From NCBI GenBank assembly GCA_964555955.1, contig CAZKUM010000002.1, forward strand, positions 1 through 30,368: DNA of 30,368 nucleotides, given 5' to 3'. This DNA is from an uncultured Candidatus Saccharibacteria bacterium (lineage in GTDB: Bacteria; Patescibacteriota; Minisyncoccia; Minisyncoccales; Staskawiczbacteraceae). The notes below the pieces were generated by a model. That model was given only the letters and a program-made list of their open reading frames with translations, was not told where the DNA came from and did not search any database. Positions within the stretch are counted from its first letter, which is position 1. Each line of letters starts with the position of its first letter. Both the position numbers and the translations under genes were made by a program. Positions 5,440-20,200 of the stretch are shown here, in pieces.

Positions 5440-6260
5440 AGCAATATTTGGACGTTTTAAAAAAAATAATGGATGAAGGCGTAGACAGGCCAGATAGAAC
5501 AGGAGTTGGCTCGCGCGCTGTTTTTGGCGTGCCAATGAGGTTTAATATGAAAGACGGATTTCCAGCAATGACAACAAAAAAATTGGCCTTCGAAGCTGTA
5601 AAAGCTGAGTTATTATGGTTTTTATCAGGAAGTTCAGACAACAAAGAACTTCAAAAATTAGGTTGCCATATTTGGGATGGAAACGCTGAGGCCGATTATT
5701 GGAAACCAAAAGCAAAATTTGAAGGGGATTTAGGCAGGGTTTACGGAGTTCAATGGAGAAATTGGAAGTCGCCTTATACAGATGTTCCTATTGATCAGAT
5801 AAGCAATGTTATAAATCAGTTAAAGAAAAACCCAGGAGACAGAAGAATGATAGTTTCAGCATGGAATCCTGCAGAGTTGGATATGATGGCTCTTCCGCCA
5901 TGCCATTTGCTTTTTCATTTTTTTTCTGTGCAGGGAAAGTTATCTTTATTAATGTATCAAAGAAGTTGTGATACATTTTTAGGGGTTCCTTTTAATATTG
6001 CTTCTTATTCTTTATTGCTGCATATGGTTTCGCAAGTTGTGGGGTTAGAGCCGCACGAGTTTGTGCATATTTTAGGCGACACCCATATTTATTTAAACCA
6101 TTTTGAACAAGTAAAAGAACAAATGGCCCGCGAGCCTTATTCTTTGCCAAAATTATGGTTAAATCCGGAAGTAAAAAATATTTTTAGTTTTAAAATGGAA
6201 GATATAAAATTAGTTGATTATAAATATCATCCGCCCATTAAAGCTCCAATGGCCGTTTAA
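5436..6260 (+). CDS. thyA: Thymidylate synthase
   Basis: DRTGVG, ELLWF, DLGRVYGVQWR, catalytic LPPCH, YQRSCD, LGVPFNIASY, GDTHIY and IKAPMAV. Confidence 0.98.
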   Translation: MKQYLDVLKKIMDEGVDRPDRTGVGSRAVFGVPMRFNMKDGFPAMTTKKLAFEAVKAELLWFLSGSSDNKELQKLGCHIWDGNAEADYWKPKAKFEGDLGRVYGVQWRNWKSPYTDVPIDQISNVINQLKKNPGDRRMIVSAWNPAELDMMALPPCHLLFHFFSVQGKLSLLMYQRSCDTFLGVPFNIASYSLLLHMVSQVVGLEPHEFVHILGDTHIYLNHFEQVKEQMAREPYSLPKLWLNPEVKNIFSFKMEDIKLVDYKYHPPIKAPMAV

Positions 6261-6266
6261 ATTAGT

Positions 6267-6773
6267 ATGATTTCAATGATATCAGCTGTGGCTGAAAATA
6301 AAGTAATAGGAAATAAAAACGCTTTGCCGTGGCATTTGCCGGCTGATTTCAAATATTTTAAAGAAGCTACATTGGGCAAAACAATTGTAATGGGTTTAAA
6401 TACTTTTAATTCTATTGGGGCAAAACCTTTACCCGAAAGAAAAAATGTAGTTCTAAATAACGATCCAAACTATGCAGCTCCTAACGGATGTTTTGTGGCG
6501 CGCTCAATTGAGGAAGTTTTAGAAATGGCAAACCCTTCGACAAGCTCAGGGCTAGAACCAGAGGTAATGATTTGCGGGGGAGCGTCTGTTTATAAGCAAT
6601 TTTTGCCTTATGCAAAAAAATTATATATAACTGAAGTACATGCCACCCCAGAGGGAGATACTTTTTTTCCGGAAATTAATAAAGAAGAATGGAAAGAAAT
6701 ATGGAGGGAAGATCATAAAGCTGACGACAAAAACGCATTTGATTACTCTTTTGTGGTTTTAGAGAAGATTTAA
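6267..6773 (+). CDS. folA: Dihydrofolate reductase, with a small in-frame palindromic insert
   Basis: VIGNKNALPWHLPADFKYFK, IVMGLNTF, KPLPERKNVV, ICGGASVY and GDTFFP. Confidence 0.96.
   Translation: MISMISAVAENKVIGNKNALPWHLPADFKYFKEATLGKTIVMGLNTFNSIGAKPLPERKNVVLNNDPNYAAPNGCFVARSIEEVLEMANPSTSSGLEPEVMICGGASVYKQFLPYAKKLYITEVHATPEGDTFFPEINKEEWKEIWREDHKADDKNAFDYSFVVLEKI
6533..6551. repeat. Palindromic element within the DHFR gene (encodes PSTSSG)
   Basis: CCCTTCGACAAGCTCAGGG; same family as the element at 9680-9701. Confidence 0.75.
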
Positions 6774-6808
6774 AAATTATAAATTGAAAATTAAAAATTC
6801 GCTAATAT

Positions 6809-8284
6809 ATGGCATATAAACCAACAATTGGGTTAGAAATTCATGCGGAATTAAAAACAAAATCAAAAATGTTTTGTTCCTGCAAAAATGACCCGGATGA
6901 AAAACGGCCAAATTATAATATTTGCCCGGTTTGCACAGCGCAACCCGGAAGTTTGCCAGTGGCAAATGAAGAAGCAATAAAAAAAGTTATTAAAACAGGG
7001 TTGGCTTTAAATTGCAAAATCGCAGAAAAATCAAAATTTGACAGGAAAAATTATTTTTACCCGGATTTGCCAAAAGGATATCAAATTTCGCAGTACGACC
7101 AGCCATTATGTGAAGGCGGATTTTTAGAGATTAAAGATAGAAAAATACGAATAACAAGAATACATTTAGAAGAAGATACGGGAAGTTTAATGCATCCGGA
7201 AAATACGGACTATTCATTGGTTAATTTAAATAGAGCAGGAGTGCCTTTAATGGAGCTTGTCACAGAGCCAGATATTACTTCGGGTAAAGAAGCAAGGGAA
7301 TTTGCAGAAGAGCTTCAAATTATTTTAAAATATTTGGGGGTTTCTGATGCAGATATGGAAAAGGGCCAAATGAGGGTTGAAGTAAATATAAGTATAAGCA
7401 AGGGGAAAACACTGGGTACAAAAGTTGAAATTAAAAATTTGAACTCATTTAAAGTTGTTGAAAAAGCAGTTGATTTTGAAATAAAAAGACAAGAAGAAGT
7501 TTTGGAGTCTGGAGAAAAAATTGTTCAGGAAACAAGGGGCTGGCATGACAAAAAAGAAATAACATTTTCGCAGAGAGAAAAAGAAGAAGCGCACGATTAT
7601 AGATATTTTCCAGAGCCTGATTTACCTCTAATGAATTTTGAGAAAGATTATATAGAAAAAATAAAAGCAGAAATACCCGAATTGCCGGCAGGCAAAAGAA
7701 AAAGATTTGCTAAAGAATATGGCTTGGATACAGGATTAATTGAGATTTTTGTCAGTAATAAAGATTTAAGCGAATATTATGAAAAAGTTGTTTCTGAATT
7801 TGAGGAGTGGTTGAAAGACGAAGGGGAAAAGCCCCACGAAAAATTATATAAGTTAGTTGCTAATTATTTAATATCTGATGTACAGGGTTTATTGCAAGGC
7901 AAAGAGTTTAAGGAATTCTCCGCCCAAGGCGGACCAGCCTCGGGCTGGAAAATTACTCCAGAAAATTTTGCAGAATTTATTAAAATGATTTATAAAAATG
8001 AAATTTCAAGCAAAGTGGCTAAAATGGTTTTAGCTGATATGTTTAATACGGGGTCAGACCCATCAACTATTGTAGATGAAAATAATTTAAGGCAGATGTC
8101 AGACGATTCTGAACTTGAAAATATTATAAAAGAAATTATTTTAAAAAATCCAAAAGCAGTTGAAGATTATAAAAAGGGCAAACAAAATTCTCTGCAATTT
8201 TTAGCAGGGCAGGTGATGGCAGTTACAAGAGGCACTGCTAATCCCGGGAAAGTCCGCGAACTTTTGAGTAAATTATTGAAATAA
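6809..8284 (+). CDS. gatB: Asp/Glu-tRNA amidotransferase subunit B
   Basis: IGLEIHAEL, FDRKNYFYPDLPKGYQISQ, RIHLEED, NRAGVPLMELVTEP, EIKNLNSF and YRYFPEPDL. Confidence 0.98.
   Translation: MAYKPTIGLEIHAELKTKSKMFCSCKNDPDEKRPNYNICPVCTAQPGSLPVANEEAIKKVIKTGLALNCKIAEKSKFDRKNYFYPDLPKGYQISQYDQPLCEGGFLEIKDRKIRITRIHLEEDTGSLMHPENTDYSLVNLNRAGVPLMELVTEPDITSGKEAREFAEELQIILKYLGVSDADMEKGQMRVEVNISISKGKTLGTKVEIKNLNSFKVVEKAVDFEIKRQEEVLESGEKIVQETRGWHDKKEITFSQREKEEAHDYRYFPEPDLPLMNFEKDYIEKIKAEIPELPAGKRKRFAKEYGLDTGLIEIFVSNKDLSEYYEKVVSEFEEWLKDEGEKPHEKLYKLVANYLISDVQGLLQGKEFKEFSAQGGPASGWKITPENFAEFIKMIYKNEISSKVAKMVLADMFNTGSDPSTIVDENNLRQMSDDSELENIIKEIILKNPKAVEDYKKGKQNSLQFLAGQVMAVTRGTANPGKVRELLSKLLK
7919..7948. repeat. 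Tandem double-hairpin element within gatB (encodes SAQGGPASGW)
   Basis: TCCGCC-CAA-GGCGGA followed directly by CCAGCC-TCG-GGCTGG. Confidence 0.85.
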
Positions 8285-8291
8285 TTAAATC

Positions 8292-8334
8292 AAAAAAACA
8301 GCCCCAACTCGCGTAAAGCAAGCTGGGGCTTTTG
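8292..8334. terminator. Bidirectional terminator between gatB and the convergent orphan gene
   Basis: A-tract, AGCCCCA...TGGGGCT stem, T-tract. Confidence 0.75.
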
Positions 8335-8349
8335 GTTTGGCGGAGGGCC

Positions 8350-8727
8350 CTAGTATTGGGGTTTTGGCGTTGGGTCGGCGGCTCCGCCGAAATTTTCGAA
8401 TGGATTCGCGTGGCGCCCAAGCCCGTAGGAAAAGCAAGGAAGAATTCTTGGAGGAGTTGCTCTGTTTCCTAGCGGGCAAACCCTACGAAGAATTTTCAAC
8501 ATTTCTTTGTCTGGCATTCCTCCATAAATCCAGACTTCTCCGTTTTCAAGAATCGCAACTGTACAGCCGTCATCACAGCCCCAATGGCCGAGATGAAACT
8601 GAGGCGCTTGTATGGGCTCCTCTTCGTCCGATGTAGCATCGTAAACTGGCAAGCCGGTCACGTGAATGAACTTTTCCCTTACAAGCTCGTTCCTTTGGTC
8701 CACTAGTGGCAGTGTCGTCGTAGCCAT
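8350..8727 (-). CDS. Hypothetical protein, 125 aa (likely start ATG 8727)
   Basis: GGAGG SD 7 nt upstream, its own promoter and a terminator. GC-richer than its neighbours. Confidence 0.65.
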   Translation of the reverse strand: MATTTLPLVDQRNELVREKFIHVTGLPVYDATSDEEEPIQAPQFHLGHWGCDDGCTVAILENGEVWIYGGMPDKEMLKILRRVCPLGNRATPPRILPCFSYGLGRHANPFENFGGAADPTPKPQY

Positions 8728-8786
8728 AAATAGGCCTCCCTTATGCAAAAGTGAAAGAACAAGTATTGGTTAAAATCCAATAATTA

Positions 8787-8815
8787 ATCATATCATTTTT
8801 CAATGAAGATGTCAA
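8787..8815 (-). promoter_or_regulatory. Promoter of the 125-aa orphan, overlapping the miaA 3' end
   Basis: On the minus strand: TTGACA (8815-8810), 17 bp spacer, TG-A-TATGAT (-10 at 8792-8787). Confidence 0.7.
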
Positions 8816-9770
8816 TAGCGTGTATGATTTTTTTATAATCGTCCATCCAATTTATTTTTTTATCTTTTTTAAACCATGTCATCTGCCGCTTTGCATAATG
8901 CCAGGTATTTGCTTTTATAATTTCTGATGCCTGCTCTAATGTTGTTTTTTTACCCGCCCCGTTTTTTTCGGGGTTTAAATATTCAATTATTTCGCGGTAT
9001 CCAATGGCGTCAAAGGCTTGTTGATAGCCGCCAGCCTCGACGCTAGGCGGGTATTTTTTTATTAAATTTTTTACTTCTTTGACTAATCCGTTTTTTATCA
9101 TTTCGTCAACGCGCTGATTTATGCGTTTTTGTAATTCTTCTTTGGGAACTGAAATTCCAATTTCCAAAACGTCAAAAATTGGGTTTCCTTGTTTTCTTTG
9201 CAGAGAAAATGGTTTTTTAGTTAAAAGGGTGACTTCTAAAGCCCTTATAACTCTTCGTGGGTTTTTTGGGTCAACAATATAAGCTGATTCAGGGTCAAGT
9301 TTTATTAGTTTTTTAAAAACGTAATTTAATCCATATTTTTCTATATCTTTTTCAATTTTTACCCGCAAAAAAGGATCTGGCTTAACTTTTGGAATATCAA
9401 GATTTTCGGCTACCGCCTTTATATAAAGCCCTGTGCCGCCAACTAAAATTGGCAGTTTATTTCTTTTTAAAATTTGGTTTATTTTTTGTACAGCGTCATT
9501 TTTGTATTCGGCTACTGTATAATTTTGATTTGGTTTTTTAATGTCTAAAAGCCAGTGGGGAACTTTGCATTGTTCTTTTTTTGTGGGCTTTGCAGTGCCA
9601 ATGTCCATGCCTTTGTAAATTTGCCTTGAATCAGCCGAAACCACCTCTGCGCCGTTAATGCCAAGTTTTTTAAATCGTTGCCCTTCGGCTATGCTCAGGG
9701 CCAATTTGACGGACAAATTGGTTTTCCCAGACGCAGTTGGCCCTAAAATTACAATTAATTTATTTTTCAT
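8793..9770 (-). CDS. miaA: tRNA dimethylallyltransferase (start probably ATG 9770), with three palindromic inserts
   Basis: ILGPTASGKT, VSADSRQIYKGMDIGTAKP, LVGGTGLY, RRVIRALEV, AIGYRE and YAKRQMTWF. Confidence 0.97.
   Translation of the reverse strand: MKNKLIVILGPTASGKTNLSVKLALSIAEGQRFKKLGINGAEVVSADSRQIYKGMDIGTAKPTKKEQCKVPHWLLDIKKPNQNYTVAEYKNDAVQKINQILKRNKLPILVGGTGLYIKAVAENLDIPKVKPDPFLRVKIEKDIEKYGLNYVFKKLIKLDPESAYIVDPKNPRRVIRALEVTLLTKKPFSLQRKQGNPIFDVLEIGISVPKEELQKRINQRVDEMIKNGLVKEVKNLIKKYPPSVEAGGYQQAFDAIGYREIIEYLNPEKNGAGKKTTLEQASEIIKANTWHYAKRQMTWFKKDKKINWMDDYKKIIHAIDIFIEK
8957..8973. repeat. Hairpin within miaA (encodes PEKNG)
   Basis: CCCCG-TTTTTTT-CGGGG. Confidence 0.5.
9028..9050. repeat. 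Palindromic element within miaA (encodes PPSVEAGG)
   Basis: CCGCC-AGC-CTCGAC-GCT-A-GGCGG. Confidence 0.75.
9680..9701. repeat. Palindromic element within miaA (encodes ALSIAEGQ)
   Basis: GCCCTTCGGCTATGCTCAGGGC; a variant of 6533-6551, in the opposite orientation relative to its host gene. Confidence 0.8.
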
Positions 9771-11037
9771 TAATAATTTCGCCATTTAAGATAAACGGAT
9801 AGGCTTCGGTAATTTTTACCTTAACTAATTTTCCTAAAAGGTTTTTTGCAGATGCTATTTTTATTGTTTTATAGTGTTCGTTTTTGCCAAACCAATTTTC
9901 GCCTCTTTGACTATCTATTAAAACTATTGTTTCTTTGCCAATTATTTTTTTGTTTTTTTCCAAAGCAGTTTGTTTTAAAATTTCTGTTAAAACTTTTTCC
10001 CTGCGTTTTTTTTCAATAATTAAAACATTGTCTTTTAATTTGGCGGCGGCAGTGCCGGCTCTGGGCGAGTATTTATTTATATATGCCATATCAAACTTAA
10101 TTTCGCGGAATAATTTTGCAGTATTTTCAAACTGTTTTTTTGTTTCGCCAGGAAACCCCACAATAATATCTGTTGATATAGAAATATCTGGAATTTTTTC
10201 TCTTAATTTTTTAATTTTATTTTTATAGTCTTTTACAGTGTAATGCCTGTTCATTAATTTTAAAACCTTATCATCGCCGGCTTGCACTGGCAAATTTAAG
10301 TAAGGCGTAATTTTGCCCTGCCTACCGGCAGGCAGGCTCCAGTTTGCCATTGCATTTATAACTTCGTCGGTAAAATCTTTTGGGTGGCTTGAAGTAAACC
10401 TTATCCAAAACTTTCCTTTGATATTATTTACTATTTTCAAAAGCTCTGCAAAAGTTATTTTACCATCTTTATAACTATTAACGTTTTGCCCCAAAAGCCA
10501 GATTTCTTTATAGCCCTCACTAATAAGATTTTTTATTTCTGAAATTATTTCTTCTGCCGGACGTGAGATTTCACGTTCGCGAGTGTAGGGAACAACGCAA
10601 TATGCGCAAAAATTATTGCAGCCTGTCATTATTGGCACATTAGCTGAAAATTTATTTGAATATTTTGGGGCGATATTTAAATAATCGCTCGGCAGGTTTT
10701 TAAAAATTTGTTGCCCCGCTAAAATATTAGGAAGTTCTGTAATATTTTTTATATCTAAAATATAGTCAAAAATTTCTTCAAATTTTTTCTTGTCTTTTTT
10801 TAGCACGCATCCGGTTAAAACAGTTACTGGTTTATTTTTCTTTTGTTTGAGTTTTTCGACAAGGCCATAAATTCTGTTTATGGCAGATTGCCTTACCGAG
10901 CAGGCATTAATTACAACCAAATTTGCATCAGCCATATCTTTGGCAGGTTTGTATTTTAAGTTTTCTAAAACTGCGGCAATTCTTTCAGAATCCGATATAT
11001 TCATCTGGCATCCGTATGTTATAACGTGATATTTCAT
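9760..11037 (-). CDS. miaB: tRNA-i6A37 methylthiotransferase
   Basis: ITYGCQMN, NACSVRQSA, radical-SAM motif GCNNFCAYCVVPYTRERE, LLGQNVNSY, DIIVGFPGET and a C-terminal TRAM domain. Confidence 0.96.
   Translation of the reverse strand: MKYHVITYGCQMNISDSERIAAVLENLKYKPAKDMADANLVVINACSVRQSAINRIYGLVEKLKQKKNKPVTVLTGCVLKKDKKKFEEIFDYILDIKNITELPNILAGQQIFKNLPSDYLNIAPKYSNKFSANVPIMTGCNNFCAYCVVPYTREREISRPAEEIISEIKNLISEGYKEIWLLGQNVNSYKDGKITFAELLKIVNNIKGKFWIRFTSSHPKDFTDEVINAMANWSLPAGRQGKITPYLNLPVQAGDDKVLKLMNRHYTVKDYKNKIKKLREKIPDISISTDIIVGFPGETKKQFENTAKLFREIKFDMAYINKYSPRAGTAAAKLKDNVLIIEKKRREKVLTEILKQTALEKNKKIIGKETIVLIDSQRGENWFGKNEHYKTIKIASAKNLLGKLVKVKITEAYPFILNGEIINEK
10317..10336. repeat. Palindromic element within miaB (encodes LPAGRQG)
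   Basis: CCTGCCT-ACCGGC-AGGCAGG, with perfect 7-bp arms. Confidence 0.85.
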
Positions 11038-11048
11038 GAAGCTAATAA

Positions 11049-11093
11049 TACAACAAAAAAACAGCTTCGTAAAGGAGCTGTTTTTTTGTTGTA
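11049..11093. terminator. Long bidirectional terminator-like inverted repeat
   Basis: TACAACAAAAAAACAGCT / AGCTGTTTTTTTGTTGTA, perfect 18-bp arms. Confidence 0.85.
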
Positions 11094-11095
11094 TC

Positions 11096-12271
11096 TTACT
11101 GAGCGCTTGTCGTATTTGGATTTAGAATATTCTGCAGGGCCTTTGTGCATTCTTCTTTTTCTTCAAAAGTTCTAAGAGTTTGGTACATATATGCTCCGCA
11201 GAATTCTTTTTCTTGGCAAGTTCGGTTATCTTTATCAAACCACCAAAGGTCTTCGCATTCAGTTTTTACATCTCCGCATTTGCCTTCTGAGGCAATTTTC
11301 GTTCCGGCGGCTTTCGCTAAACATTCGTTGCCGTATGTTACTCCGTCTTTGCCGCATACTGGCTCATATTCTTGTGTGCAAATTTTTTGTTCTGAACGGG
11401 TTAAACAATTAAATCCCGTAATGCATTCTTTTCCATCCCTTTGCATTTTTATTATGCCATTTTTACAGAAATCAGCAACCGGTTTTGAAACAACGGGACA
11501 ATTTTTTTCTGCATTTTTTTCTGTCGCTTTTTCTATTAATTTATCGTTTACTTTTTCTCTAACGTTTTCTTTTATGTCATCTAATTTTTGCTTTATATCA
11601 TCTGGCATTTTTTCTTTTATCTTATCTAAAATATCAGTATTAATCGCATCTCCATTTTGCAGAGATTCTTTTATCTTATTTATGATTTGGTCTTTATTAT
11701 CCTGAAGTCTTGTCATCACATCCTTGAATTTTTCTAAATGCTGTTCTCTTGCTTCTTTAATTTTTTCGAATGCTGCCTCTGGCACTTGCCCTTCAAGCTT
11801 TTGGAGAATTTTTTCTTGCAACACCTGCTGATTCGTAAATTTATCTAAAAAATTATTTACTTCTTGATTGTTGTCCGCCTTATCTTTTATTTCATCAGCT
11901 GCGTTTTTTACCTTGTCTAAAGCCTCTTTATAGTTTTCTATGGCATCTTTTATTTTTTCTGAGTCAGCTCCATTGTCAGACATTTTTTGCAATTCAATTA
12001 TTTTTTCATTCGTAAATTTGTTTTCAAGTTCCGCTTTTTTTACTTTGTTGATAGTAAAAAATAATTGAATTCCTCTGCCCCAATTTTTTAAAAAATAAAA
12101 AGGGCTGTCTGGTAAAATGTTTTGGTTGCTTACTCCAAGGTCTGTTGGCAAAACCTGAACGCTATCTTGAGTTGTTGTTGTTGAATTAGTTTGCGCATTT
12201 ATTACGCCAGAAAAACTAATAAAAGTTAAGCAAACTGCCGCTAATAATATTATCGTTAATTTATTTTTCAT
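11096..12271 (-). CDS. Exported protein with a DUF5667-like helical region, a Kazal-type domain and a C-terminal Cys module
   Basis: N-terminal signal/TM segment; LPDSPFYFLKNW; charged helical middle; Kazal pattern CTQEYEPVCGKDGVTYGNECLA...EGKC. Confidence 0.8.
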   Translation of the reverse strand: MKNKLTIILLAAVCLTFISFSGVINAQTNSTTTTQDSVQVLPTDLGVSNQNILPDSPFYFLKNWGRGIQLFFTINKVKKAELENKFTNEKIIELQKMSDNGADSEKIKDAIENYKEALDKVKNAADEIKDKADNNQEVNNFLDKFTNQQVLQEKILQKLEGQVPEAAFEKIKEAREQHLEKFKDVMTRLQDNKDQIINKIKESLQNGDAINTDILDKIKEKMPDDIKQKLDDIKENVREKVNDKLIEKATEKNAEKNCPVVSKPVADFCKNGIIKMQRDGKECITGFNCLTRSEQKICTQEYEPVCGKDGVTYGNECLAKAAGTKIASEGKCGDVKTECEDLWWFDKDNRTCQEKEFCGAYMYQTLRTFEEKEECTKALQNILNPNTTSAQ

Positions 12272-12312
12272 AGAATATTTTTATTAAATATTATTATAAG
12301 TTATCGACCTTT

Positions 12313-13935
12313 TTAGCGAATTTCTTCCTTTTTTTCTTTTATAAAATATCGCCATCTTTCTAAAAATTCAACGAAAACAGAAAATGGCATATCAATTAAA
12401 GCATTAAAAAAGGTGGCAATAGCGTTATATTGTTTCCATGTGTTAGAAAGCCATTGTCCTATTCCGGTTATCGGCAGCAACAAAACATCCGACATAAAAC
12501 TGAAAAAACTTTCTGGCCTTTCTTCAATAGTTAGTTCTTCTGCCCGTTTTCTAATTGCAGTTCCGGCAAAAAGTATTAAAGTGATAAATACTATATTTAT
12601 TATAATTGAAGTGATGGGGAATTTAAAGAAGCTAAAAATCCAAATAATTGTTCCAAGCGACACTACGGCTCCCAGCGCATAAAAAATAGAAATAATTAAT
12701 CTTGTGAAAAATCCCCGTTTTTTTTGTATTTTTATTTCGTATGTGTCTATTTTTTCTTTTTGATATGCAATTTTCATTGTTTCCATTACAGCTATGCTTA
12801 AGTTTCTGTTAGAAGGTTTTTTTATTGTTGCAACTAAAATAAACATTAAAATAGTTGGTATTAAAACGTCTGCTGCCAATAAAATAAAATTAAGGTGCCC
12901 TGTTAGCATTTCAGATAACAACACTTCCAATAATACCAAAGATAAAACTTTAGTTAAAAAAATAGATAAAGTTGAATAAATAGCCGCCCTTTGAAGCCTT
13001 GCTTTAAGCGTGGATAATCTTTTACCATAAGATGATTTTATTAAACTTTCTAATACAGCAGGATCTTGGATTTTTCTGCCTATTTCTGCCGGGTTGTCAG
13101 TAGACAATATATCTCCCAATAATAAGTATGGAGTATCGTATTTTTCGCATATTGCATAGAATTTTTTTAAAAGCGGGTGATTTAATTCTCTTTCTATTTT
13201 ATTCCATATTTTATAAACATTTTGGGCGATTTTAAAAAGTAAATCTTCACCATTTTCATGCCAGTTTGGATATTTATGCGTTATAAGATTGTAATTTATA
13301 ATAGGTTTGTCCAGTTTAAAAAGAGCCTGCTGAACAGCAATGTAAATTTGAGTATCTTCGTCCTCTTTTTTTAACAAGCCTCTTTCAAAAATATTTTCGT
13401 TTACTTTTATTCTTTCTTTCATTAACTCAAACATATAATCTATTAAAGCTCTTTCTTTTATGGCGGGAACTAAAATTTCTTCTATTTCACAGGCAGTAAT
13501 TTCTAAAAGCCAGTTATAAAATTGCAATCCGGCTTTACCTTTTTTATTTTCCGGGCTGTTTTTTAAAATAAAAACATATTTGTCTATTACTTTTTGAACA
13601 TCAATAATTTTTGACTCTTCAATTTTGTCGTTTAAAAAGTGGCCTCCGCGGATTAACTCTAAAACCAAGGGTTCTGCTATTTGCTCGTCTGGCGAAAAAT
13701 TACTTAGCTCTAAATCAAAAAATCTTCTTTTTAATTTTCTGATAATAGCCGCTCTTCGCATTAAGTGCTCTTCTTTCCAGTCAACTATTGTTCTTATGTG
13801 CTCGTAAAAAGCGGCAACCCTTAGGGCAACTTCGTCAACGTGTATTGTTAAAACGCCTTCTTTGGGTTTTAAAGACTGCTGCCAAAGATTATATTTTGAG
13901 ATTAAATTTTTTGTTGCCGCAGAAAGTTCTGCCAT
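12313..13935 (-). CDS. Hypothetical integral membrane protein, 540 aa, soluble N-terminal part and about 4 C-terminal TM helices
   Basis: Long ORF with host-like codon usage, 4 nt downstream of thrS, with hydrophobic helices in the last ~200 aa. Confidence 0.85.
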   Translation of the reverse strand: MAELSAATKNLISKYNLWQQSLKPKEGVLTIHVDEVALRVAAFYEHIRTIVDWKEEHLMRRAAIIRKLKRRFFDLELSNFSPDEQIAEPLVLELIRGGHFLNDKIEESKIIDVQKVIDKYVFILKNSPENKKGKAGLQFYNWLLEITACEIEEILVPAIKERALIDYMFELMKERIKVNENIFERGLLKKEDEDTQIYIAVQQALFKLDKPIINYNLITHKYPNWHENGEDLLFKIAQNVYKIWNKIERELNHPLLKKFYAICEKYDTPYLLLGDILSTDNPAEIGRKIQDPAVLESLIKSSYGKRLSTLKARLQRAAIYSTLSIFLTKVLSLVLLEVLLSEMLTGHLNFILLAADVLIPTILMFILVATIKKPSNRNLSIAVMETMKIAYQKEKIDTYEIKIQKKRGFFTRLIISIFYALGAVVSLGTIIWIFSFFKFPITSIIINIVFITLILFAGTAIRKRAEELTIEERPESFFSFMSDVLLLPITGIGQWLSNTWKQYNAIATFFNALIDMPFSVFVEFLERWRYFIKEKKEEIR

Positions 13936-13939
13936 AAAA

Positions 13940-15670
13940 TTATTTTTTGCTATTTATTTCCTTTATAATTTTTTCAACGAACTTATTTGGAGCCATAGTT
14001 CCGATATCCCCCTTACCGCGTTCTCTAACTGAAACCGCATTTGCAGAAACTTCTTTATCACCCAAAATTAAAAGATAAGGGATTTTTTGCATTTCAGCTT
14101 CGCGGATTTTTTTGCCTAAAGTTTCATTTTCATATTTCAATTCAATGCGTATATTTTTTTCTTTTAATTCTTTTTCAATTTTTTTTGCATATTCAAAATG
14201 TTTTTCAGAAATTGGGATTACGCTAACCTGAACAGGGGATAGCCATAATGGAAACGCCCCGGCATAATGCTCTATTAAAATTCCAAAAAATCTTTCAGGC
14301 GAGCCTACAATGGCCCGATGTATCATTACAGGAGTTTTTTCTTTGCCATCTGAATCTGTATATTTTAAGCCAAATCTTTCGGGCATTATAAAATCAAGCT
14401 GTATTGTTGAAAGCTGCCATTCTCTGCCCAGAGAATCTCTAGAAATTAAATCCATTTTTGGTCCGTAAATTGCAGCTTCGCCTTCTGCTTTAAAATATTC
14501 AATTTTATTTTCAACTAAAATTTCCTCAAGCAATTGCTGGGATTTTTTCCATGTTTTTGCATCGCCTAAATATTTTTCAGGATGTTTTTGATCCCACAAA
14601 GAAAGCCTGATTTTATAATTCATTCCAAATGTTTTCATTGCTTTTTCTACTATTAAAAGCACTGATTTAAATTCGTCTTTTATCTGGTCTTCGCGGCAGA
14701 AGCAGTGGCCGTCATCTTGCCTAAACCCGCGCAGCCTCGAAAGCCCAGAAAGCTCGCCGGTTTTTTCGTCTCTATAAAGCATAGAAAAATCAGCAATTCT
14801 TATAGGTAAATCTTTGTAACTTTTTGGTTTTGCTGCAAAAATTTGGGTATGTTGAGGGCAATTCATCGGCTTTAAAAAATATTCTTCTTTTGTGTAGTGA
14901 GAGTGTACCAAAAACATATCGTCTTTATATTTTTCATAGTGACCAGAAACCTTAAAAAGTTCTGCGCGGTTCATGTTCGGCGTTTGCACTTCTTGATATC
15001 CAATTCCTTTTTGAAGCTCGTTGCAATAATTTTTAATTTCATCTAAAACAGCAACGCCTTTAAAAGTATAAAGAGGAAGCCCCGGCCCAACTAATTCTGA
15101 AAAAACAAATAAGTCTAATTTTTCACCCAGTTTTCTGTGGTCGCGTTTTTCTGCCTCTTCTTGCATTTTTGAATAATCTTGCAATTCTTTTTCAGTTTCA
15201 AAAGCTAAACCATAAATTCTTGTCAGCATTTTATTTTTTTCATTTCCCTTCCAGTAAGCTCCGGAAATTTTTGTAAGCTTAAAAGTTTTTAAATTTATTT
15301 CGCTAGTATTTTTTACATGAGGCCCTTTGCACAAATCTGTAAAATTACCGTTAATGTAAATTGAAACATTTTTGCCCGGCAATTCTTTTATTAGTTCTAA
15401 TTTATATGGCTGGCCTGCAAACAATTTTTTTGCTTTTATTTTTGAAATTTCTTCTTTTTCAAATTTTTGGTTTTGTAAAATCAACTGGCGCATTTTTTCT
15501 TCAATTTTTTTTAGGTCGTTTGGCTCAGATGGTTTTGTCAATTGAAAATCGTAATAAAAACCGTTTTCAATTGCCGGCCCTATTCCTAATTTCGTTTTAG
15601 GCCAAAATTCTAAAACTGCTTGCGCCATAATATGCGATAGGGAATGGCGTATATTTTCTATATTTTTCAT
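13940..15670 (-). CDS. thrS: Threonine--tRNA ligase (start probably ATG 15670; lacks the N-terminal TGS domain)
   Basis: RHSLSHIMAQAV, GPAIENGFYYDF, DLCKGPHV, RDHRKLG, KPMNCP, QLSTIQLDF and HRAIVGSPERF. Confidence 0.98.
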   Translation of the reverse strand: MKNIENIRHSLSHIMAQAVLEFWPKTKLGIGPAIENGFYYDFQLTKPSEPNDLKKIEEKMRQLILQNQKFEKEEISKIKAKKLFAGQPYKLELIKELPGKNVSIYINGNFTDLCKGPHVKNTSEINLKTFKLTKISGAYWKGNEKNKMLTRIYGLAFETEKELQDYSKMQEEAEKRDHRKLGEKLDLFVFSELVGPGLPLYTFKGVAVLDEIKNYCNELQKGIGYQEVQTPNMNRAELFKVSGHYEKYKDDMFLVHSHYTKEEYFLKPMNCPQHTQIFAAKPKSYKDLPIRIADFSMLYRDEKTGELSGLSRLRGFRQDDGHCFCREDQIKDEFKSVLLIVEKAMKTFGMNYKIRLSLWDQKHPEKYLGDAKTWKKSQQLLEEILVENKIEYFKAEGEAAIYGPKMDLISRDSLGREWQLSTIQLDFIMPERFGLKYTDSDGKEKTPVMIHRAIVGSPERFFGILIEHYAGAFPLWLSPVQVSVIPISEKHFEYAKKIEKELKEKNIRIELKYENETLGKKIREAEMQKIPYLLILGDKEVSANAVSVRERGKGDIGTMAPNKFVEKIIKEINSKK

Positions 15671-15678
15671 AGTAATAC

Positions 15679-15707
15679 TTGACACGATTAATTTTATATG
15701 ATATTAT
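15679..15707 (+). promoter_or_regulatory. Promoter of the 66-aa orphan, divergent from thrS
   Basis: TTGACA (15679-15684), 17 bp spacer, TG-A-TATTAT (-10 at 15702-15707). Confidence 0.75.
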
Positions 15708-15754
15708 TAATATAATAAGGTAAAGTGATTTTTCACAATTTTTGGAGAAAAACC

Positions 15755-15955
15755 ATGACTAAGGCTAAAGCTAAGGTTTTCAGCCAAGAAGAGGTGATAG
15801 AAGTCAGAGGGCCTAATTTGGGAAAACTTGAACAACGACTTGACTCGTTGAATCCTCAAGACAGAGGCTTAGAGCTCAAAAGAGCAGGAGCAGATGGAGA
15901 CGATTTCGTTTTCAAGTTTACACAGGCCAACCAGCCTTCCAAACAGCCCCAGTAG
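15755..15955 (+). CDS. Hypothetical protein, 66 aa
   Basis: GGAG SD before ATG 15755, its own promoter and terminator. Confidence 0.65.
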   Translation: MTKAKAKVFSQEEVIEVRGPNLGKLEQRLDSLNPQDRGLELKRAGADGDDFVFKFTQANQPSKQPQ

Positions 15956-15978
15956 GTCCCGTTAACTCGGGGGCACAT

Positions 15979-16017
15979 GCGCCAAGGTTTGTTTTACAGA
16001 CCGCGGCGCCTTTTTTT
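15979..16017 (+). terminator. Intrinsic terminator
   Basis: GCGCC-AA-GGTTTGT-TTT-ACAGACC-GC-GGCGC followed by T7. Confidence 0.75.
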
Positions 16018-16057
16018 ATTTCTTAATCTTACCATCTTTATTTTTATCAAGAAAGTC

Positions 16058-16086
16058 TTGACAAAAGTATATTATAGGTGTATCAT
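16058..16086 (+). promoter_or_regulatory. Promoter of the 107-aa membrane-anchored orphan
   Basis: TTGACA (16058-16063), 17 bp spacer, TATCAT (16081-16086). Confidence 0.75.
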
Positions 16087-16164
16087 TAAATATAGCACAC
16101 AATAGGTTTTTTTCTGCCAAGCTTGTGCAAAAGCAGACAAAGGCCAAACCATAGGAGGTCTATT

Positions 16165-16488
16165 ATGGACAGTCTTACTAAGTATGTAATTGTCGTTACT
16201 ACCTTTTTATGCGTCGTTTGTGTTGTGGCGCTTGTTGTGTTAGACAGCAAGCGCACAGATCAACCCCTGCATCAGGAATCAGCTAAGGTGGAAAGCGACC
16301 AGGGGTATCAAGATGAGGCTGACAAGATTGTTAGCCAGATTAGGTACATTAAGGATGAGCGAACCGAAATATGTTTTGCCTATATCTTGGATGAACAGGG
16401 GAAGATTCAGTTTTTCACCTGTGTGCCAAGCAATATGGTTCAACCAACGTTGCTCAAGATTGGCAAGACTGAGGGAAAACAGCCCTAA
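16165..16488 (+). CDS. Membrane-anchored hypothetical protein, 107 aa
   Basis: AGGAGG SD before ATG 16165; N-terminal TM helix; C-terminal IRYIKDERTEICFAY...FTCVP module. Confidence 0.75.
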   Translation: MDSLTKYVIVVTTFLCVVCVVALVVLDSKRTDQPLHQESAKVESDQGYQDEADKIVSQIRYIKDERTEICFAYILDEQGKIQFFTCVPSNMVQPTLLKIGKTEGKQP

Positions 16489-16518
16489 ACGATAAAGGTC
16501 TAAGCAGGCCAACTGCTT

Positions 16519-16546
16519 ACCGCGTTGAGAAATACGCGGTTTTTTT
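16519..16546 (+). terminator. Intrinsic terminator, preceded by a second hairpin at 16502-16518
   Basis: ACCGCGT-TGAGAAAT-ACGCGGT followed by a T-tract; AAGCAG-GCCAA-CTGCTT lies upstream. Confidence 0.8.
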
Positions 16547-16559
16547 ATGTTTTGTGCTG

Positions 16560-16582
16560 AAAATTGACGGTCGTCAATAAAT
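16560..16582. repeat. Palindromic direct repeat, copy 1, upstream of the PaaX/Cas2-like gene
   Basis: AAAATTGACGGTCGTCAATAAAT, with core palindrome ATTGACG-GT-CGTCAAT. Confidence 0.92.
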
Positions 16583-16610
16583 TGACACTAAAGAATTAAG
16601 AGGCTATTAT
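16582..16610 (+). promoter_or_regulatory. Promoter of the PaaX/Cas2-like gene
   Basis: TTGACA (16582-16587), 17 bp spacer, TATTAT (16605-16610); abuts repeat copy 1. Confidence 0.75.
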
Positions 16611-16625
16611 AAATATAAAAATAAA

Positions 16626-17177
16626 ATGTCTGATTTAAAAGAAAAAATATTATTATCGCTTTTGGCTGGAATTGCATTTGGATGTGCAGTTACTCCTAGC
16701 CAGCAGAACAGAGTTTTAAAATCGTTTGCCAAAATTTGGGGTACTAATAATAAAGAAATTTCAAAGGAATTAAGGACTCTGAAGCGAAATCAATTAATTA
16801 AAAAGATTATCCGAAAAGACGAATCTACATATAATTTAGAATTGACCGAAAAAGGTAAACTAAAAGCATTAGATTATTATTTTTTCAGAAAATTAAAAAT
16901 TAAAGATAAAAAATGGGACGGCAAATGGCGTATGCTGATTTTTGATGTGCCAGAGCGTTTACGCAACGGAAGAAATGCCTTGAGATGGAAAATTAAGAAA
17001 TTGGGGTTTTATGAATTGCAAAAAAGTGTTTTTATAATTCCTTATGAATGCAAAAAAGAAATAGATTTTGTTGTTCATTATTTCAATTTAAAACAGTATG
17101 TTTATTATGGTATTTTTGAGATAGGGGACGAAAGAACAAATAAAAAATTAATGAAAACATTCCAAATCACAGATTAA
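16626..17177 (+). CDS. PaaX-like protein: winged-helix-like region plus a Cas2/VapD-like domain, with no CRISPR context
   Basis: LRTLKRNQLI...LELTEKG (wing), WDGKWRMLIFDVPE, RNALRWKIKKLGFYELQKSVF. Confidence 0.85.
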   Translation: MSDLKEKILLSLLAGIAFGCAVTPSQQNRVLKSFAKIWGTNNKEISKELRTLKRNQLIKKIIRKDESTYNLELTEKGKLKALDYYFFRKLKIKDKKWDGKWRMLIFDVPERLRNGRNALRWKIKKLGFYELQKSVFIIPYECKKEIDFVVHYFNLKQYVYYGIFEIGDERTNKKLMKTFQITD

Positions 17178-17191
17178 AGTGTAGGTGTACA

Positions 17192-17214
17192 AAAATTGAC
17201 GGTCGTCAATAAAT
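17192..17214. repeat. Palindromic direct repeat, copy 2, downstream of the PaaX/Cas2-like gene
   Basis: Identical 23-mer AAAATTGACGGTCGTCAATAAAT. Confidence 0.92.
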
Positions 17215-17246
17215 AGACTTCAAGGGTATTAGAGATTTATTAATAG

Positions 17247-20200
17247 CTATGATTCCCGCGGAACAAGAATTTCTTGCGCGTCGTCGGCTACAATTTTAAT
17301 TTCGCCATTTCGGTCGTCAACGCGGCCGGCAACAAAAATTATTTTATTTTCTTGCAAAGCAACAGGATTTCTTTCTAAAAGATTTGGGAAAATTACAACT
17401 TCTGTTTTGCCGGTTAAATCTTCAAGTTTCATAAACAGCATTGGCTTGCCGTTTTTAGTGATAATTTTTTTAACAGAAGAAACTAACCCGCCAACAATAA
17501 TTTTTTTATTTACAAAACTTGCGTCAATTCTTGAAATTGGCGTTGTTTTATTTTCAAAAAGTTTTTTAAAGCCGTACAAAGGGTGCGAGCTAACGTAAAG
17601 CCCAAGCAGTTCTTTTTCCCAGCCCAGTTTTTCAAAGTTGCTGGCAGGCGTGGCCGGTTCTAATTTTATTTCACTATTGATTTTTACTCCAGCTGACGCA
17701 AAAAGCCCCATTTGGTTTGAATTATTGTTTTTGTTGTTTTCTCTTGCAATTTCAAGCATTTTTTCTAAGTTTGTCAGTAATTGGTTTCTTTCGGCAAACT
17801 CGTCAAAAGCTCCGGCTTTTATTAAAGCCTCCATTGATTTTTTGTTTAAATCTTTAGATTTTACTCTGTGTATAAAATCGCTAATAGATGCAAATTTTCC
17901 GTTTGCTTTTTTTTCTTCAACAACTGCGTCTATAATATTTACCCCAACATTTTTGATGGCTAATAAACCAAACCTAATTTGATTTTTGCCCTCAACAACT
18001 GTAAAGTTTTTTAAAGATTCATTTATGTTTGGAGGCAAAACTTCAACATTCATTTTTTTGCACTCGTCAATTAAAAAGGCAATTCTTTCAACATCTGTTC
18101 TTTCTGAAGTTAAAACTGAAGCCATAAATTCAACAGGGTAGTGAGCTTTTAAGTAGGCTGTTTGGTAGGCAATTGTGGCATAAGCTGCAGAGTGCGATTT
18201 GTTAAATCCGTAAGCTGCAAAAGGTAAAATCCATTGCCATAATTCTTCGCCAACTTTTTTTGAAGCGCCATTTTTTACAGCTCCTTCAATAAATTTTGTT
18301 TCTTGAGCGTCTAAAAGATTTTTAATTTTTTTACCAACAGCTTTTCTTAAAACATCAGCTTCGCCCAAAGTAAACCCGCAAACTTCCTGGGCAATTTTCA
18401 TAAGCTGTTCTTGATAAATGCAAATGCCCTGTGTTTCTTTTAATATGGACTCTAATTTTGGATGCAAGTATTCTATTTTTTGACCTCCATGCTTTCTTGA
18501 AATATAATCTGGAATAAATTGCATAGGGCCCGGGCGATATAAAGCTACCATAGCGGTAATATCTTCAAAAGTTGTAGGATGAAGTTCTTTTAAATATCTT
18601 TTCATGCCATCGCTTTCTAGCTGAAAAACAGAAGTTGTTATGGCATCTTGCAAAAGTTTAAAAGTTTTTGCGTCGTCATAAGGAATTTTATCTAAATCAA
18701 TTTTTAAATTATTATGCAAAACATAAATGCGAGCCAAGGTGTCTTCTATTATGGTAAGGTTTTTTAACCCTAAAAAGTCCATTTTTAAAAGGCCTAAGTC
18801 TTCAATGCTGTGCATTTCGTATTGAGTTATAATGCCTTCTTCAGACTGGGTTGACCTTTGCAATGGGACAGAGTTGGTTAAAGAGTCGGCCGAAATCACA
18901 ATTCCGCAGGCGTGAGTTGAAGCATGGCGGGCAACTCCTTCAAGTTTTTTGCCTAAATCAATTAAGCGTTTTGCCTGGTCATCCATTTTATACATATCTT
19001 TAAACTCTGAAACTTTTTCTAATGTTTCTGCCAAATCCATGCCAGTTGGAATCATTTTTGCCAGCGAGTCGCAATAAGAATAAGTGTACTGCAAAGCCCT
19101 GCCAACGTCGCGAATAACAGCGCGGGCCGCCATTGTTCCAAAAGTAATAATTTGGGCTACATGGTCTTGGCCGTATTTTTCTGCAACATATTTTATAACC
19201 TCGTCTCTTCTTCTGTCGGCAAAATCTAAATCAATATCAGGCATAGAAATTCTTTCAGGGTTTAAAAATCTTTCAAAAAGCAAATTATGTTTTAAAGGGT
19301 CAACATTAGTGATATTGGTTAAATAGGCAACTAATGAGCCGCCGGCAGAACCTCTGCCGGGCCCCACAATTATTCTGTTTTCTTTTGCCCAGTTTACAAA
19401 GTCTTGCACAATTAAAAAATATCCTGCAAAGCCGGTTTTTTTAATTACGGAAAGTTCATAATTCATTCTTTCAATAATTAGATTTCGGTCAATATTTTCG
19501 CCCGCCTGCAACGCCTTCGGCTCGACCGTCTCGCTACGAGAAGCGTTACGGGCGGGCGTAGCCGATGCGGGCAGGCCAAATCTTGTTTTAAGCCCTTGCC
19601 AGCAAAGTTCTTCTAAAAATTGTTCTGCTGTTTTTTCTTCTGGCAACGAGAAAGTAGGCAATTTTGTTTTACCAAGCTCAATTTGCAAATTACACAGATC
19701 GGCTATTTTTTGCGTGTTTTCAATTGCCTCTGGGGTGTCTTTAAAATGTTCATGCATCGCTTCAGGGCTTATCATTGAAAAATTATCTTGAGCCATAGAC
19801 AGCCTTTCTGGGTCGTTTGCGTCAGCTCCCGTGTTTATTAACATTAAAACATCTTGGGCTTCTGCGTCTTCTTTTCTTAAATAATGTATGTCGTTTGTGG
19901 CAACTAAAGGTATGCCGGTTTTTTTAGAAAGTTCTATAAGCCTTTTGTTTGCGGTTGCTTGTTCTGGTATATTGGCATGGTGCTGTAATTCTAAATAAAA
20001 GTTTCCTTTGCCAAAAAAGGATTCATATTTTTTTGCGGTTTCTTCAGCTTCTTCGTTTTTGTTAGACAAAAGAAGCCGTGGAATTTTTCCCTGAATGCAG
20101 GCGGATAACCCAATTAAGCCCTCGGCATATTGGCTTAAAAGTTCTTCATCTATTCTGGGCTTGTAATAAAAACCTTCTAAATGCGCTTTAGAAACAAGCT

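Follow-up and report, generated by a model that had tools for sequence, protein, structure and literature searches.

Palindromic elements that insert in frame into housekeeping genes have been described from Rickettsia, where the Rickettsia palindromic elements (RPEs), of about 100-150 bp, form some ten families that are restricted to the genus and each add a conserved peptide (Ogata et al. 2000, 2002, via PMC10969869). [quoted passage not shown] A contig of a member of the Candidate Phyla Radiation (CPR), GenBank CAZKUM010000002.1, carries seven short GC-rich segments that interrupt the genes folA, gatB, miaA (three times), miaB and dnaE without breaking their reading frames, and these segments are the subject of this analysis. 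The window, that is, the whole stretch of DNA that was analysed, is 30,368 bp long with 34.8% GC and carries the ordinary housekeeping genes thyA, folA, gatB, miaA, miaB, thrS and dnaE.

Repetitive extragenic palindromic (REP) sequences, which are associated with RAYT transposases, also occur within genes of replication and repair, including dnaE of R. conorii, and have as their hallmark a tetranucleotide, GTAG or CGTC, that is conserved on one side of the stem-loop, at its end (Di Nocera et al. 2013, PMC3733652). Most of the GC clusters of yeast mitochondria have AG or TAG terminal repeats, interpreted as target duplications, and the 'byp' elements of Magnusiomyces lie in coding regions (PMC8811140). 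A literature search by topic and with exact nucleotide and peptide strings (TTCGACAAGCTCA, GGCTGGTCCGCC and others) returned nothing relevant, and among the top-ranked results of the literature searched there was no description of such elements in CPR/Patescibacteria.

The comparisons presented here make it probable that the segments are inserted, repeated palindromic elements that have been retained and are translated in frame. A previous reading of the DNA, made from the sequence alone, had proposed that a REP- or MITE-like system is spreading into coding DNA and creating new protein loops, with its mobiliser encoded elsewhere. The insertions themselves stood up to comparison with orthologues; the assignment to a REP/RAYT or MITE system is not supported.

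In-frame inserts in housekeeping genes

The window derives from a CPR genome of Candidatus Staskawiczbacteria-like type. The nearest relatives of its MiaA protein are found in metagenome-assembled genomes of Candidatus Staskawiczbacteria (Parcubacteria, CPR), and most of the data compared are metagenome-assembled genomes. Indels were listed for every protein of the window by tblastn against relatives, with fetched DNA loci given L-numbers and orthologous proteins P-numbers. The fetched loci total 3.7 Mb, of which the CPR share is about 0.8 Mb. Syntenic relatives were L001/L190 (RIFOXYB1_FULL_37_44-like), L189, L191, L192 and L503/L504 (Hainich groundwater); further miaA/miaB loci were L002, L003, L004 and L193. 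Gene identities in the window were confirmed by NCBIfam, and the interrupted genes and their inserts are as follows.

6267-6773, plus strand: folA (NCBIfam)
6533..6553, plus strand: folA insert, 21 nt, CCCTTCGACAAGCTCAGGGCT, encodes PSTSSGL, family 1
6809-8284, plus strand: gatB (NCBIfam)
7919..7948, plus strand: gatB insert (element E), exactly 30 nt, encodes SAQGGPASGW
8793-9785, minus strand: miaA (NCBIfam)
8952..8972, minus strand: miaA insert 3, 21 nt, CCCGAAAAAAACGGGGCGGGT, encodes PEKNGAG, 5-bp stem with an A7 loop
9033..9050, minus strand: miaA insert 2, 18 nt, CCGCCTAGCGTCGAGGCT, encodes PPSVEA, with a CCGCC...GGCGG stem that reaches into the flank
9656..9698, minus strand: miaA insert 1, 9 nt (9656-9664) plus 27 nt (9672-9698), 36 nt together, encodes LSIAEGQRF..GI
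9760-11037, minus strand: miaB (NCBIfam)
10315..10335, minus strand: miaB insert, 21 nt, encodes LPAGRQG; plus strand C+CCTGCCTACCGGCAGGCAGG, gene strand CTGCCTGCCGGTAGGCAGGGC
17247-20507, minus strand: dnaE (NCBIfam)
19500..19577, minus strand: dnaE insert, 78 nt, 26 amino acids (aa), roughly LPASATPARNASRSETVEPKALQAGE, boundaries uncertain by a few nt

As the sequence-only reading had held, every one of the seven segments is an insertion relative to close orthologues; all seven have lengths that are multiples of 3 and contain no stop codon. The folA insert has an exact empty site in L503 (GCAAA^AAG), the two dihydrofolate reductases (DHFRs) being 80% identical at the aa level. Most of 25 aligned Staskawiczbacteria-type DHFRs, typically of 159-163 aa, have no insert at this site, about one third carry a PS[TA]SSGQ-type element there, a nested larger version is found in one, and others have elements elsewhere. 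The gatB insert is missing in L189 and L503 (81-82% aa identity) and present in L190/L001. With regard to miaA, insert 1 is missing in L189, L190 and L002 and common to L503/L504, insert 2 is missing in L190 and L191, and insert 3 is missing in L189, L190, L192 and L193. The miaB insert is missing in all relatives compared (L002, L003, L189, L190/L001, L191, L503 and L504), and the dnaE insert in L190 (82% identity) and in the 23 closest orthologues from a collection of 5.8 billion proteins.

Family 1, to which the folA insert belongs, consists of a variable 3-4-bp stem that encloses the conserved loop TTCGACAAGCTCA. The core palindrome of miaA insert 1, GCCCTTCGGCTATGCTCAGGGC at 9680-9701, is a variant of this family whose orientation relative to its gene is opposite to that of the folA copy, which bears out the earlier proposal that two of the segments (here folA 6533-6551 and miaA 9681-9700) are one family in opposite orientations. 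Element E is composed of two tandem 6-bp hairpins with triloops, TCCGCC-CAA-GGCGGA and CCAGCC-TCG-GGCTGG, and the dnaE insert is a compound palindrome in which an outer stem (GCCCGCCCGTAACGC/GCGTTGCAGGCGGGC) surrounds two small hairpins.

Where the inserts were modelled or aligned to solved structures they fall in loops, helix ends or variable linkers, in agreement with the idea that they would add new protein loops. In the AlphaFold model of the DHFR (predicted local distance difference test, pLDDT, 83), the insert is a predicted loop between helix 81-87 and strand 100-103 with pLDDT down to 67, and its position is a 6-residue gap in the alignment with solved DHFRs. The MiaA model (pLDDT 89) places insert 3 in an inter-helix loop that has the lowest internal confidence (pLDDT 61) and insert 2 in the loop between helices 234-244 and 256-259; insert 1 lengthens helix 21-34/36-40 plus the next loop. 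The residues of the gatB and miaB inserts are extra relative to the solved Aquifex GatB (3H0L) and the solved MiaB (7MJV), respectively, and that of dnaE is placed in the variable PHP-palm linker, at query residues 311-341, over which the alignment with Taq Pol III alpha (2HPI) is interrupted.

Hairpin folding was calculated with DNA parameters and expressed as z against dinucleotide shuffles. The stems of the elements are 4-8 bp long. Hairpins are strong in gatB (dG -12.3, z -3.5) and dnaE (dG -25.5, z -3.3), moderate in miaB (z -1.7) and miaA insert 2 (z -1.5), and weak in miaA inserts 1 and 3 (z -0.7 each). The seven inserts have a mean z of -1.76, compared with a mean of -0.49 in 15 further GC-rich islands of the window (Mann-Whitney p = 0.013). 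The description of the segments as hairpin-forming therefore holds for the set as a whole, against shuffles and control islands, and is weak for folA and for miaA inserts 1 and 3. Many of the other GC-rich islands are conserved Gly/Ala/Pro/Arg motifs, and GC-richness alone is consequently not diagnostic of an insert.

A larger sample of inserts is provided by 91 MiaA orthologues, which hold 52 insert events. Relative to core positions these are enriched in Gly (11.6 vs 5.5%), Pro (11.0 vs 4.3%), Ser (7.5 vs 3.1%), Arg (6.7 vs 5.0%) and also Cys, whereas Ile, Leu, Asp, Glu and Val are underrepresented. Alanine is nearly equal (7.3 vs 6.6%), and the peptide composition first described, rich in P, A, G, S and R, accordingly stands for all of these residues except A. 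The 52 events cluster at few permissive sites, and one site can hold different families, sometimes in opposite orientations. Thirteen of the 91 orthologues have the site of miaA insert 2 filled, some ten of them reading PP(x)xxGEAG/RRAG-type (PPSGEAG, PPRLGEAG, PPARRAG), with the remaining peptides different (PPPFNR, PPSLSK, PPPFSN). Insert 3 is common only to P0144, its site being filled in two of the 91, and other families occupy that site in other lineages; at the site of insert 1, other orthologues have family-1-type peptides. The closest MiaA orthologue, P0122, is without any of the three inserts of the window.

Relatives carry different GC-rich inserts at other sites, and the sequence comparisons therefore imply that inserts are gained and lost. 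L190 miaB has its own insert, TGSGQA, derived from CCTTCGACGGGCTCAGGACAAGCC; L002 miaB has a 30-aa insert of 69% GC; L193 miaA has a 31-aa insert; L503 gatB contains a family-1 variant, NPSAGSGR, as well as a 13-aa insert; and L503 thrS has a 14-aa insert of 74% GC. The nucleotide families of the window recur in L190 miaB, L503 gatB, L003 miaA/miaB and L002 miaA, and in the DHFRs P0120/P0077 a family of the window is seen at the peptide level only. Further in-frame palindromic families were observed in CPR miaA/miaB genes at L004:3751-3772 and at L003:775-852 and 1126-1248, namely GGGGCGTATTGCAATACGCCCC (GAYCNTPLQ) and TGTCATTGCGAGGGAGTCGCAACGACTGAAGCAATCC (CHCEGVATTEAIP), together with a half-E element flanked by AT-rich QIQNSK-type repeats. 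Peptides like these presumably also occur among 'hypothetical proteins' of other phyla.

Element families and the insertion of element E

Motif scans were run over a one-genome-per-species GTDB collection of 596 Gb. The folA 19-mer CCCTTCGACAAGCTCAGGG was found at no fewer than 120 loci, in Proteobacteria, Actinobacteria, Bacteroidota, Chloroflexota, Cyanobacteria, CPR and others, and the miaB 20-mer CCTGCCTACCGGCAGGCAGG likewise at 120 or more, in Bacteroidota, CPR, Omnitrophota, Chloroflexota, deltaproteobacteria and others, with isolates included in both cases. By arithmetic, about 1-4 chance matches are expected for an exact 19- or 20-mer in 596 Gb, a figure that covers these two strings only, and their distribution is far above chance. 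The isolate carriers include Olivibacter, Salinimicrobium, Microbacterium, Sphingopyxis and Moraxella, and there are also records given as whole chromosomes. Element E, searched as CCAGCC-NNN-GGCTGG-TCCGCC-NNN-GGCGGA (24 specified bases), is present at at least 120 loci in many CPR phyla and, among the matches listed, also in Omnitrophota, Planctomycetota, Bdellovibrionales, Verrucomicrobiota, Leptospira and uncultured Gammaproteobacteria. A viral contig collection gave one match to E only, and phage carriage is therefore not a major reservoir of E in that collection. A search of the window and of six loci that carry elements against Rfam, at gathering thresholds, assigned the elements to no family.

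Outside the window, family 1 usually occurs as intergenic inverted doublets, CCGTTCG-NNN-TGAGCTTGTCGAA-N'N'N' ... NNN-TTCGACAAGCTCA-N'N'N'-CGAACGG, with 3-4-bp stems that co-vary around the conserved 13-nt loop. In CPR DNA not selected by the same motif its density is about one copy per 50 kb, with E and the 20-mer less frequent, and 305 kb of non-CPR miaA loci contain zero element copies. The 20-mer is more depleted from open reading frames (ORFs) than E, with 33% of copies inside ORFs in CPR and 12% elsewhere; 10 of 21 copies in ORFs read LPAGRQ, and both orientations occur. This 20-mer often lies in the loop of a longer locus-specific hairpin, in some cases terminator-like, or directly adjoins other palindromes such as CCTCTCCCTAGGGAGAGG (L420, L439, L433, L437, L471, L478, L465, L388, L416 and others). 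Such placement suggests nesting, or hairpin loops as preferred targets. In miaA of Staskawiczbacteria LacPavin_0419 (L002:3586-3618), a stop codon comes after a 20-mer family copy, TGCCTACCGGCAGGCAGGCA; some 60 codons are then missing and the remainder is in another frame; this gene is either a pseudogene made by or at the element or the product of assembly collapse between two element copies.

By sequence comparison, four of the seven inserts (folA, gatB, miaB and miaA insert 1) are thus assigned to wider nucleotide families, found in unrelated genes and in both orientations, and to this extent the repeat families first proposed are borne out; dnaE and miaA inserts 2 and 3 could be tied to none within the fetched loci. 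The CCYGCC...GGCRGG arms by which three segments had been grouped are literally present, but the elements that carry them belong to different families, and the grouping was rejected in favour of E, the 20-mer family and unassigned elements.

These results also bear on the explanation that the inserts are ordinary lineage-specific loop expansions, produced by slippage, duplication or GC-biased repair and alike only through their GC-rich Gly, Pro, Ala and Arg codons. Such an origin would agree with the many GC-rich islands of the window that are conserved G/A/P/R motifs, with the three inserts (dnaE, miaA-2, miaA-3) for which nucleotide relatives were not detected, and with the AT-rich indels that accompany the GC-rich ones (KEF in gatB; KKLGI in miaA). 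It does not account for the recurrence, much more often than chance would give, of identical 19-30-nt strings across unrelated genes, intergenic DNA and other phyla, for exact filled/empty pairs (L318, L309, and folA vs L503), or for a palindromic structure that exceeds that of shuffles and control GC islands. Loop expansion is largely refuted for four of the seven inserts and is very unlikely as the general explanation.

The manner of insertion is clearest for element E. Filled and empty repeat pairs within L318 (GGACCGGGTT^CGATTCCCGG) and L309 (GCAGAGCAGTT^GGCTGT) define E as an exact 30-nt insertion. Target duplications, for which a check had been proposed at the outset, were lacking: no direct repeat was seen at the junctions in 100 of 116 non-redundant copies, nor in the L318 and L309 pairs, and the empty-site comparison of folA with L503 gave no terminal direct repeat. 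Written as CCAGCC...GGCGGA, E is preceded by a pyrimidine at -2 in 95% of copies and by a base other than A at -1, and is followed by A at +1 to +3 in 77, 88 and 61%. Seen from the opposite strand, the junction is TTT^[G/C/A][A/G], and the typical site lies between a T-run and R/A (TT^CGA, TTT^GA/AA).

Inside long open frames are found 57 of 127 copies of E, and 34 of these 57 share one orientation and frame, SAxGGPAxGW, as in gatB of the window. Ten ORFs with the SAxGGPAxGW-type peptide are bona fide conserved proteins by Pfam; the E-bearing conserved proteins are a CCA-adding enzyme, TGT, TsaD, HisRS, Pol I, UvrC, phosphoketolase, DnaJ, an FAD oxidase and RNase R. The comparison of coding with intergenic copies, also proposed at the outset, gave a divided answer for E in the fetched loci: 62% of copies lie inside ORFs in CPR, vs 66% of random positions, and 25% in other phyla, vs 68% of random positions, the latter deficit being as expected for insertions under purifying selection.

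Several copies of E lie in tRNA-like sequence. In partial tRNA copies, E is inserted at TT^CGA of T-arm-like sequence (L303, L318, L341, L339, L321, L345, L333) or in D-loop-like sequence (L374, L368, L380, L309, L266), and in several phyla an intact tRNA or tmRNA gene is found 12-45 nt away from the partial copy. L318 has a duplication of the final 34 nt of tRNA-Pro, with E in the second copy only. The possibility that E interrupts complete tRNA genes was considered and rejected: deletion of E in silico, with 0-3 nt trimmed per side, followed by ARAGORN gave no tRNA across the junction, and the hosts are therefore partial copies beside intact genes. In the fetched loci of Candidatus Moanabacter, 13 copies of E are situated about 65 nt from one end of a highly conserved repeat of at least ~470 nt (L270, L274, L293, L295, L302, L311, L324, L346, L349, L369, L376 and L382), the upstream part of which, judged by eye, resembles a DDE transposase C-terminus and is putatively assigned as such. 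The repeat was rejected as an autonomous E-bearing element, E being embedded near the end of the longer repeat. The position of E in a longer repeat with a transposase-like part suggests that E modules can hitch-hike on other mobile DNA.

The copies in loops of tRNA-like fragments would also suit an explanation in which the segments are removed from RNA, in the manner of introns or intervening sequences, or are bypassed by the ribosome, and so never enter the protein. Intervening sequences of rRNA, which are excised, are a precedent for GC-rich elements that are missing from the mature product. Yeast mitochondrial GC clusters in coding regions, for which ribozyme activity has been proposed, are a further precedent (PMC8811140). 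Neither an open frame nor a bias of frame is needed, however, if a segment is removed or bypassed. The seven inserts and every copy examined in CPR ORFs have lengths divisible by 3 and lack stop codons, and one benign frame is used by 34 of the 57 copies of E that lie in ORFs; in addition, the in-silico deletion of E restored no complete tRNA. Removal or bypass is accordingly regarded as highly improbable.

Comparison with known mobile elements

By analogy, the inserts may be taken as the same kind of phenomenon as RPEs, intragenic REPs and the in-frame GC clusters of yeast. Like RPEs, they are in-frame palindromic repeats in unrelated housekeeping genes of a reduced, AT-rich genome, the added peptides fit the fold of the protein, and a transposase is known for neither. 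They differ from RPEs in length (18-78 nt), in belonging to at least three families that extend across many phyla with an apparently low copy number per family, and in being read in several frames and orientations; E, moreover, is a precise 30-nt unit without target-site duplication.

With REP/RAYT systems, the elements share GC-rich stem-loops of ~20-40 nt, occurrence as singles or inverted doublets and an occasionally intragenic position, and mobilisation in trans by a hairpin-recognising enzyme is plausible for both. The GTAG/CGTC tag, however, is absent at the hairpin foot of E (T[CGT]-CCAGCC...GGCGGA-AAA), of the 20-mer (C-CCTGCC...GGCAGG-C) and of family 1. The elements are also cross-phylum and not species-specific, occur at about 1 per 50 kb or less where REPs number hundreds per genome, and, in the case of the gatB-type element, are not depleted from CPR coding DNA, whereas REPs are mostly extragenic. 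The missing tag, the low density and the cross-phylum families argue against the proposed REP/RAYT membership, and the search for RayT homologues described below, with a single probe of limited sensitivity, gave none in the CPR loci. Membership among MITEs fares no better: the elements consist of the hairpins only, apart from which terminal inverted repeats are lacking, and the target site is not duplicated.

Yeast mitochondrial GC clusters are alike in being short GC-rich palindromes dispersed in a very AT-rich, compact genome, with in-frame insertion polymorphism in a protein gene (var1), nesting or merging, an association with tRNA genes and an obscure mobilising mechanism. They differ in belonging to a eukaryotic organelle and in the AG/TAG terminal repeats of most of them, which were not seen in the elements described here. 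The byp elements are bypassed by the ribosome; the elements in the window, by contrast, keep the frame.

The IS200/IS605 elements (HUH/Y1, 'peel and paste') are alike in having no target duplication, hairpin ends and insertion beside a short preferred sequence, and the two different hairpins of E resemble a minimal left end plus right end. The hairpins described here are nevertheless terminal and perfect, with no room for transposase guide sequences, and TnpA was not found nearby. IS200/IS605 elements insert into the lagging-strand template, 3' of a fixed tetra- or pentanucleotide; the targets of E are T-rich on the 5' side (TTT/TTC) and have R/A on the 3' side, with no fixed tetranucleotide. 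Transposition of an HUH/Y1-like kind (IS200/IS605- or RAYT-type) is proposed by analogy because there is no target-site duplication and there is a flank preference, but this route seems rather doubtful. It is also conceivable, as a tentative proposal, that ultra-short (~20-30 nt) cross-phylum hairpin modules are copied by an undescribed but precise mechanism, which would prefer T-rich sequences or hairpin loops as targets, including tRNA T- and D-loop sequences, would involve no element-encoded or neighbouring gene, and would bring the modules into CPR coding DNA at a near-random rate as a continuing source of loops in essential proteins. This proposal is kept alive because the cross-phylum identity of 19-30-mers at low copy number and the presence of E in partial tRNA copies fit no known system.

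Probable retention of the inserts and its implications

Several observations weigh against insertion followed by retention and translation. The inserts are presumed to be translated on the strength of frame conservation. For three of them (dnaE and miaA inserts 2 and 3), the 3.7 Mb of fetched loci contained no nucleotide relative, and the folA insert by itself is a poor hairpin, with a 4-bp stem only (z +0.8). An apparently low copy number combined with high cross-phylum identity is not the pattern of known REP/RAYT or MITE systems and might instead reflect a conserved function or a different copying mechanism. Between the window and L503, insert 1 of miaA and its flanks are better conserved than the gene around them, a hint of constraint or gene conversion. 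The metagenome scan gave no near-identical strain in which a site is empty, the closest MiaA being only 70% identical, and several inserts are old enough to be common to lineages that are only 75-82% identical (gatB with L190, miaA insert 1 with L503, and folA-site elements in many DHFRs); the earlier statement that the system is spreading is on these grounds not upheld. As to a mobiliser, no transposase or HUH protein was found in the 30-kb window by protein family scans, which agrees with the earlier statement that none is encoded there. No protein family recurred in more than five of 120 family-1 loci, and tblastn with E. coli RayT, a single probe of limited sensitivity, detected no homologue in the CPR loci (~0.8 Mb); its only match in the 3.7 Mb as a whole was a degenerate fragment from a Planctomycete locus.

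Part of this evidence would be expected if the elements were selected nucleic-acid signals, recognised for example by a nucleoid, gyrase or RNase-type factor or serving in DNA uptake or pausing, with the protein loops as a tolerated by-product. The 19-30-mers are identical, or identical at every specified position, across many phyla, the stems of family 1 show covariation while their loop is conserved, each genome seems to have few copies, 39 nt around miaA insert 1 are identical between the window and L503/L504 in a background of ~75% identity, and copies are associated with the 3' regions of tRNA and tmRNA genes and with terminator-like hairpin loops. Yet positions vary among close relatives without consistent relation to gene function or gene ends, both orientations are found, many families share the same permissive protein loops, non-CPR copies avoid ORFs, and Rfam gives no family. 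A signalling function is on balance distinctly unlikely as the primary reason for the elements.

Assembly or binning artefacts, in the form of chimeric junctions or foreign reads collapsed into CPR contigs, also need to be considered when the data are mostly metagenome-assembled genomes, and the element, stop codon and 60-aa gap in L002 miaA could be an assembly collapse. Independent assemblies nonetheless agree at gatB (the window and L190/L001), at miaA insert 1 (the window, L503 and L504) and, from several sources, at the folA site; reading frames are always kept; and the families are found in isolate genomes and whole-chromosome records. An artefact is extremely improbable.

Other differences between the window and its relatives were seen around the interrupted genes. 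The similarity of L503 to the window is mosaic, with proteins at 63-1343 and 1914-2462 97-98% identical, that at 12313-13935 93.5%, MiaA 50% and ThyA 52%; this pattern and the 39 identical nt around miaA insert 1 suggest recombination or gene replacement between lineages, possibly near repeats. The thyA and folA genes (5436-6773) lie upstream of gatB in the window and L503, where L190/L001 have a 485-aa ORF unrelated to ThyA/FolA, and thymidylate metabolism genes therefore vary among close relatives. Between gatB and miaA, a segment of about 500 bp (8285-8792, ~41% GC) holds a 132-aa ORF (8350-8748, minus strand) that has no Pfam match and is present in L503/L504 at 67% identity; since gatB and miaA abut directly in L001/L190, it looks like an inserted small gene. 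The intergenic region between thrS and a PaaX-like gene (15686-16625) is GC-richer (38-41%) and has two small ORFs (~15756-15955 and ~16166-16488), each followed by a terminator-like hairpin. Among CPR orthologues of DnaE, P0251, P0254, P0264 and P0266 end just after the conserved LLFERFL motif (alignment columns ~430-450) and share a non-DnaE tail, SISEKYFVTNEDFGIL-like, and many DnaE matches, although on long contigs, measure just 190-440 aa; dnaE may be split there, or the site may hold an intein or an intron.

If the inserts are indeed retained mobile elements, the housekeeping genes would have been invaded by several unrelated families of GC-rich palindromic elements of 18-78 nt. Copies would land roughly at random, and most would land in genes because the CPR genome is gene-dense. 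Purifying selection would then keep those copies that have a length that is a multiple of 3, no stop codon and a position in a surface loop or linker, and would favour the frame that gives a benign Gly/Pro/Ser/Ala-rich peptide; the copies that are kept would be transcribed and translated as extra loop residues. The most speculative steps are copying in trans, by an enzyme or process that would recognise single-stranded DNA hairpins, and spread across lineages, which hitch-hiking on other mobile DNA might help.

If this is true, CPR/Patescibacteria proteomes hold many small insertions that derive from selfish DNA and not from adaptive change, which would affect how orthologues from these organisms are aligned, how their phylogenies are built and how their protein structures are predicted. 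Gene calling would be affected as well, because the same modules translated from intergenic DNA yield spurious 'hypothetical proteins'. The finding would also bear on how protein loops are thought to originate. The cross-phylum 19-30-mers at low copy number misfit the REP/RAYT and MITE paradigms and point either to an unrecognised route of mobilisation or to a widely conserved hairpin-binding function, and both alternatives are testable with the units and exact insertion junctions that are now defined.

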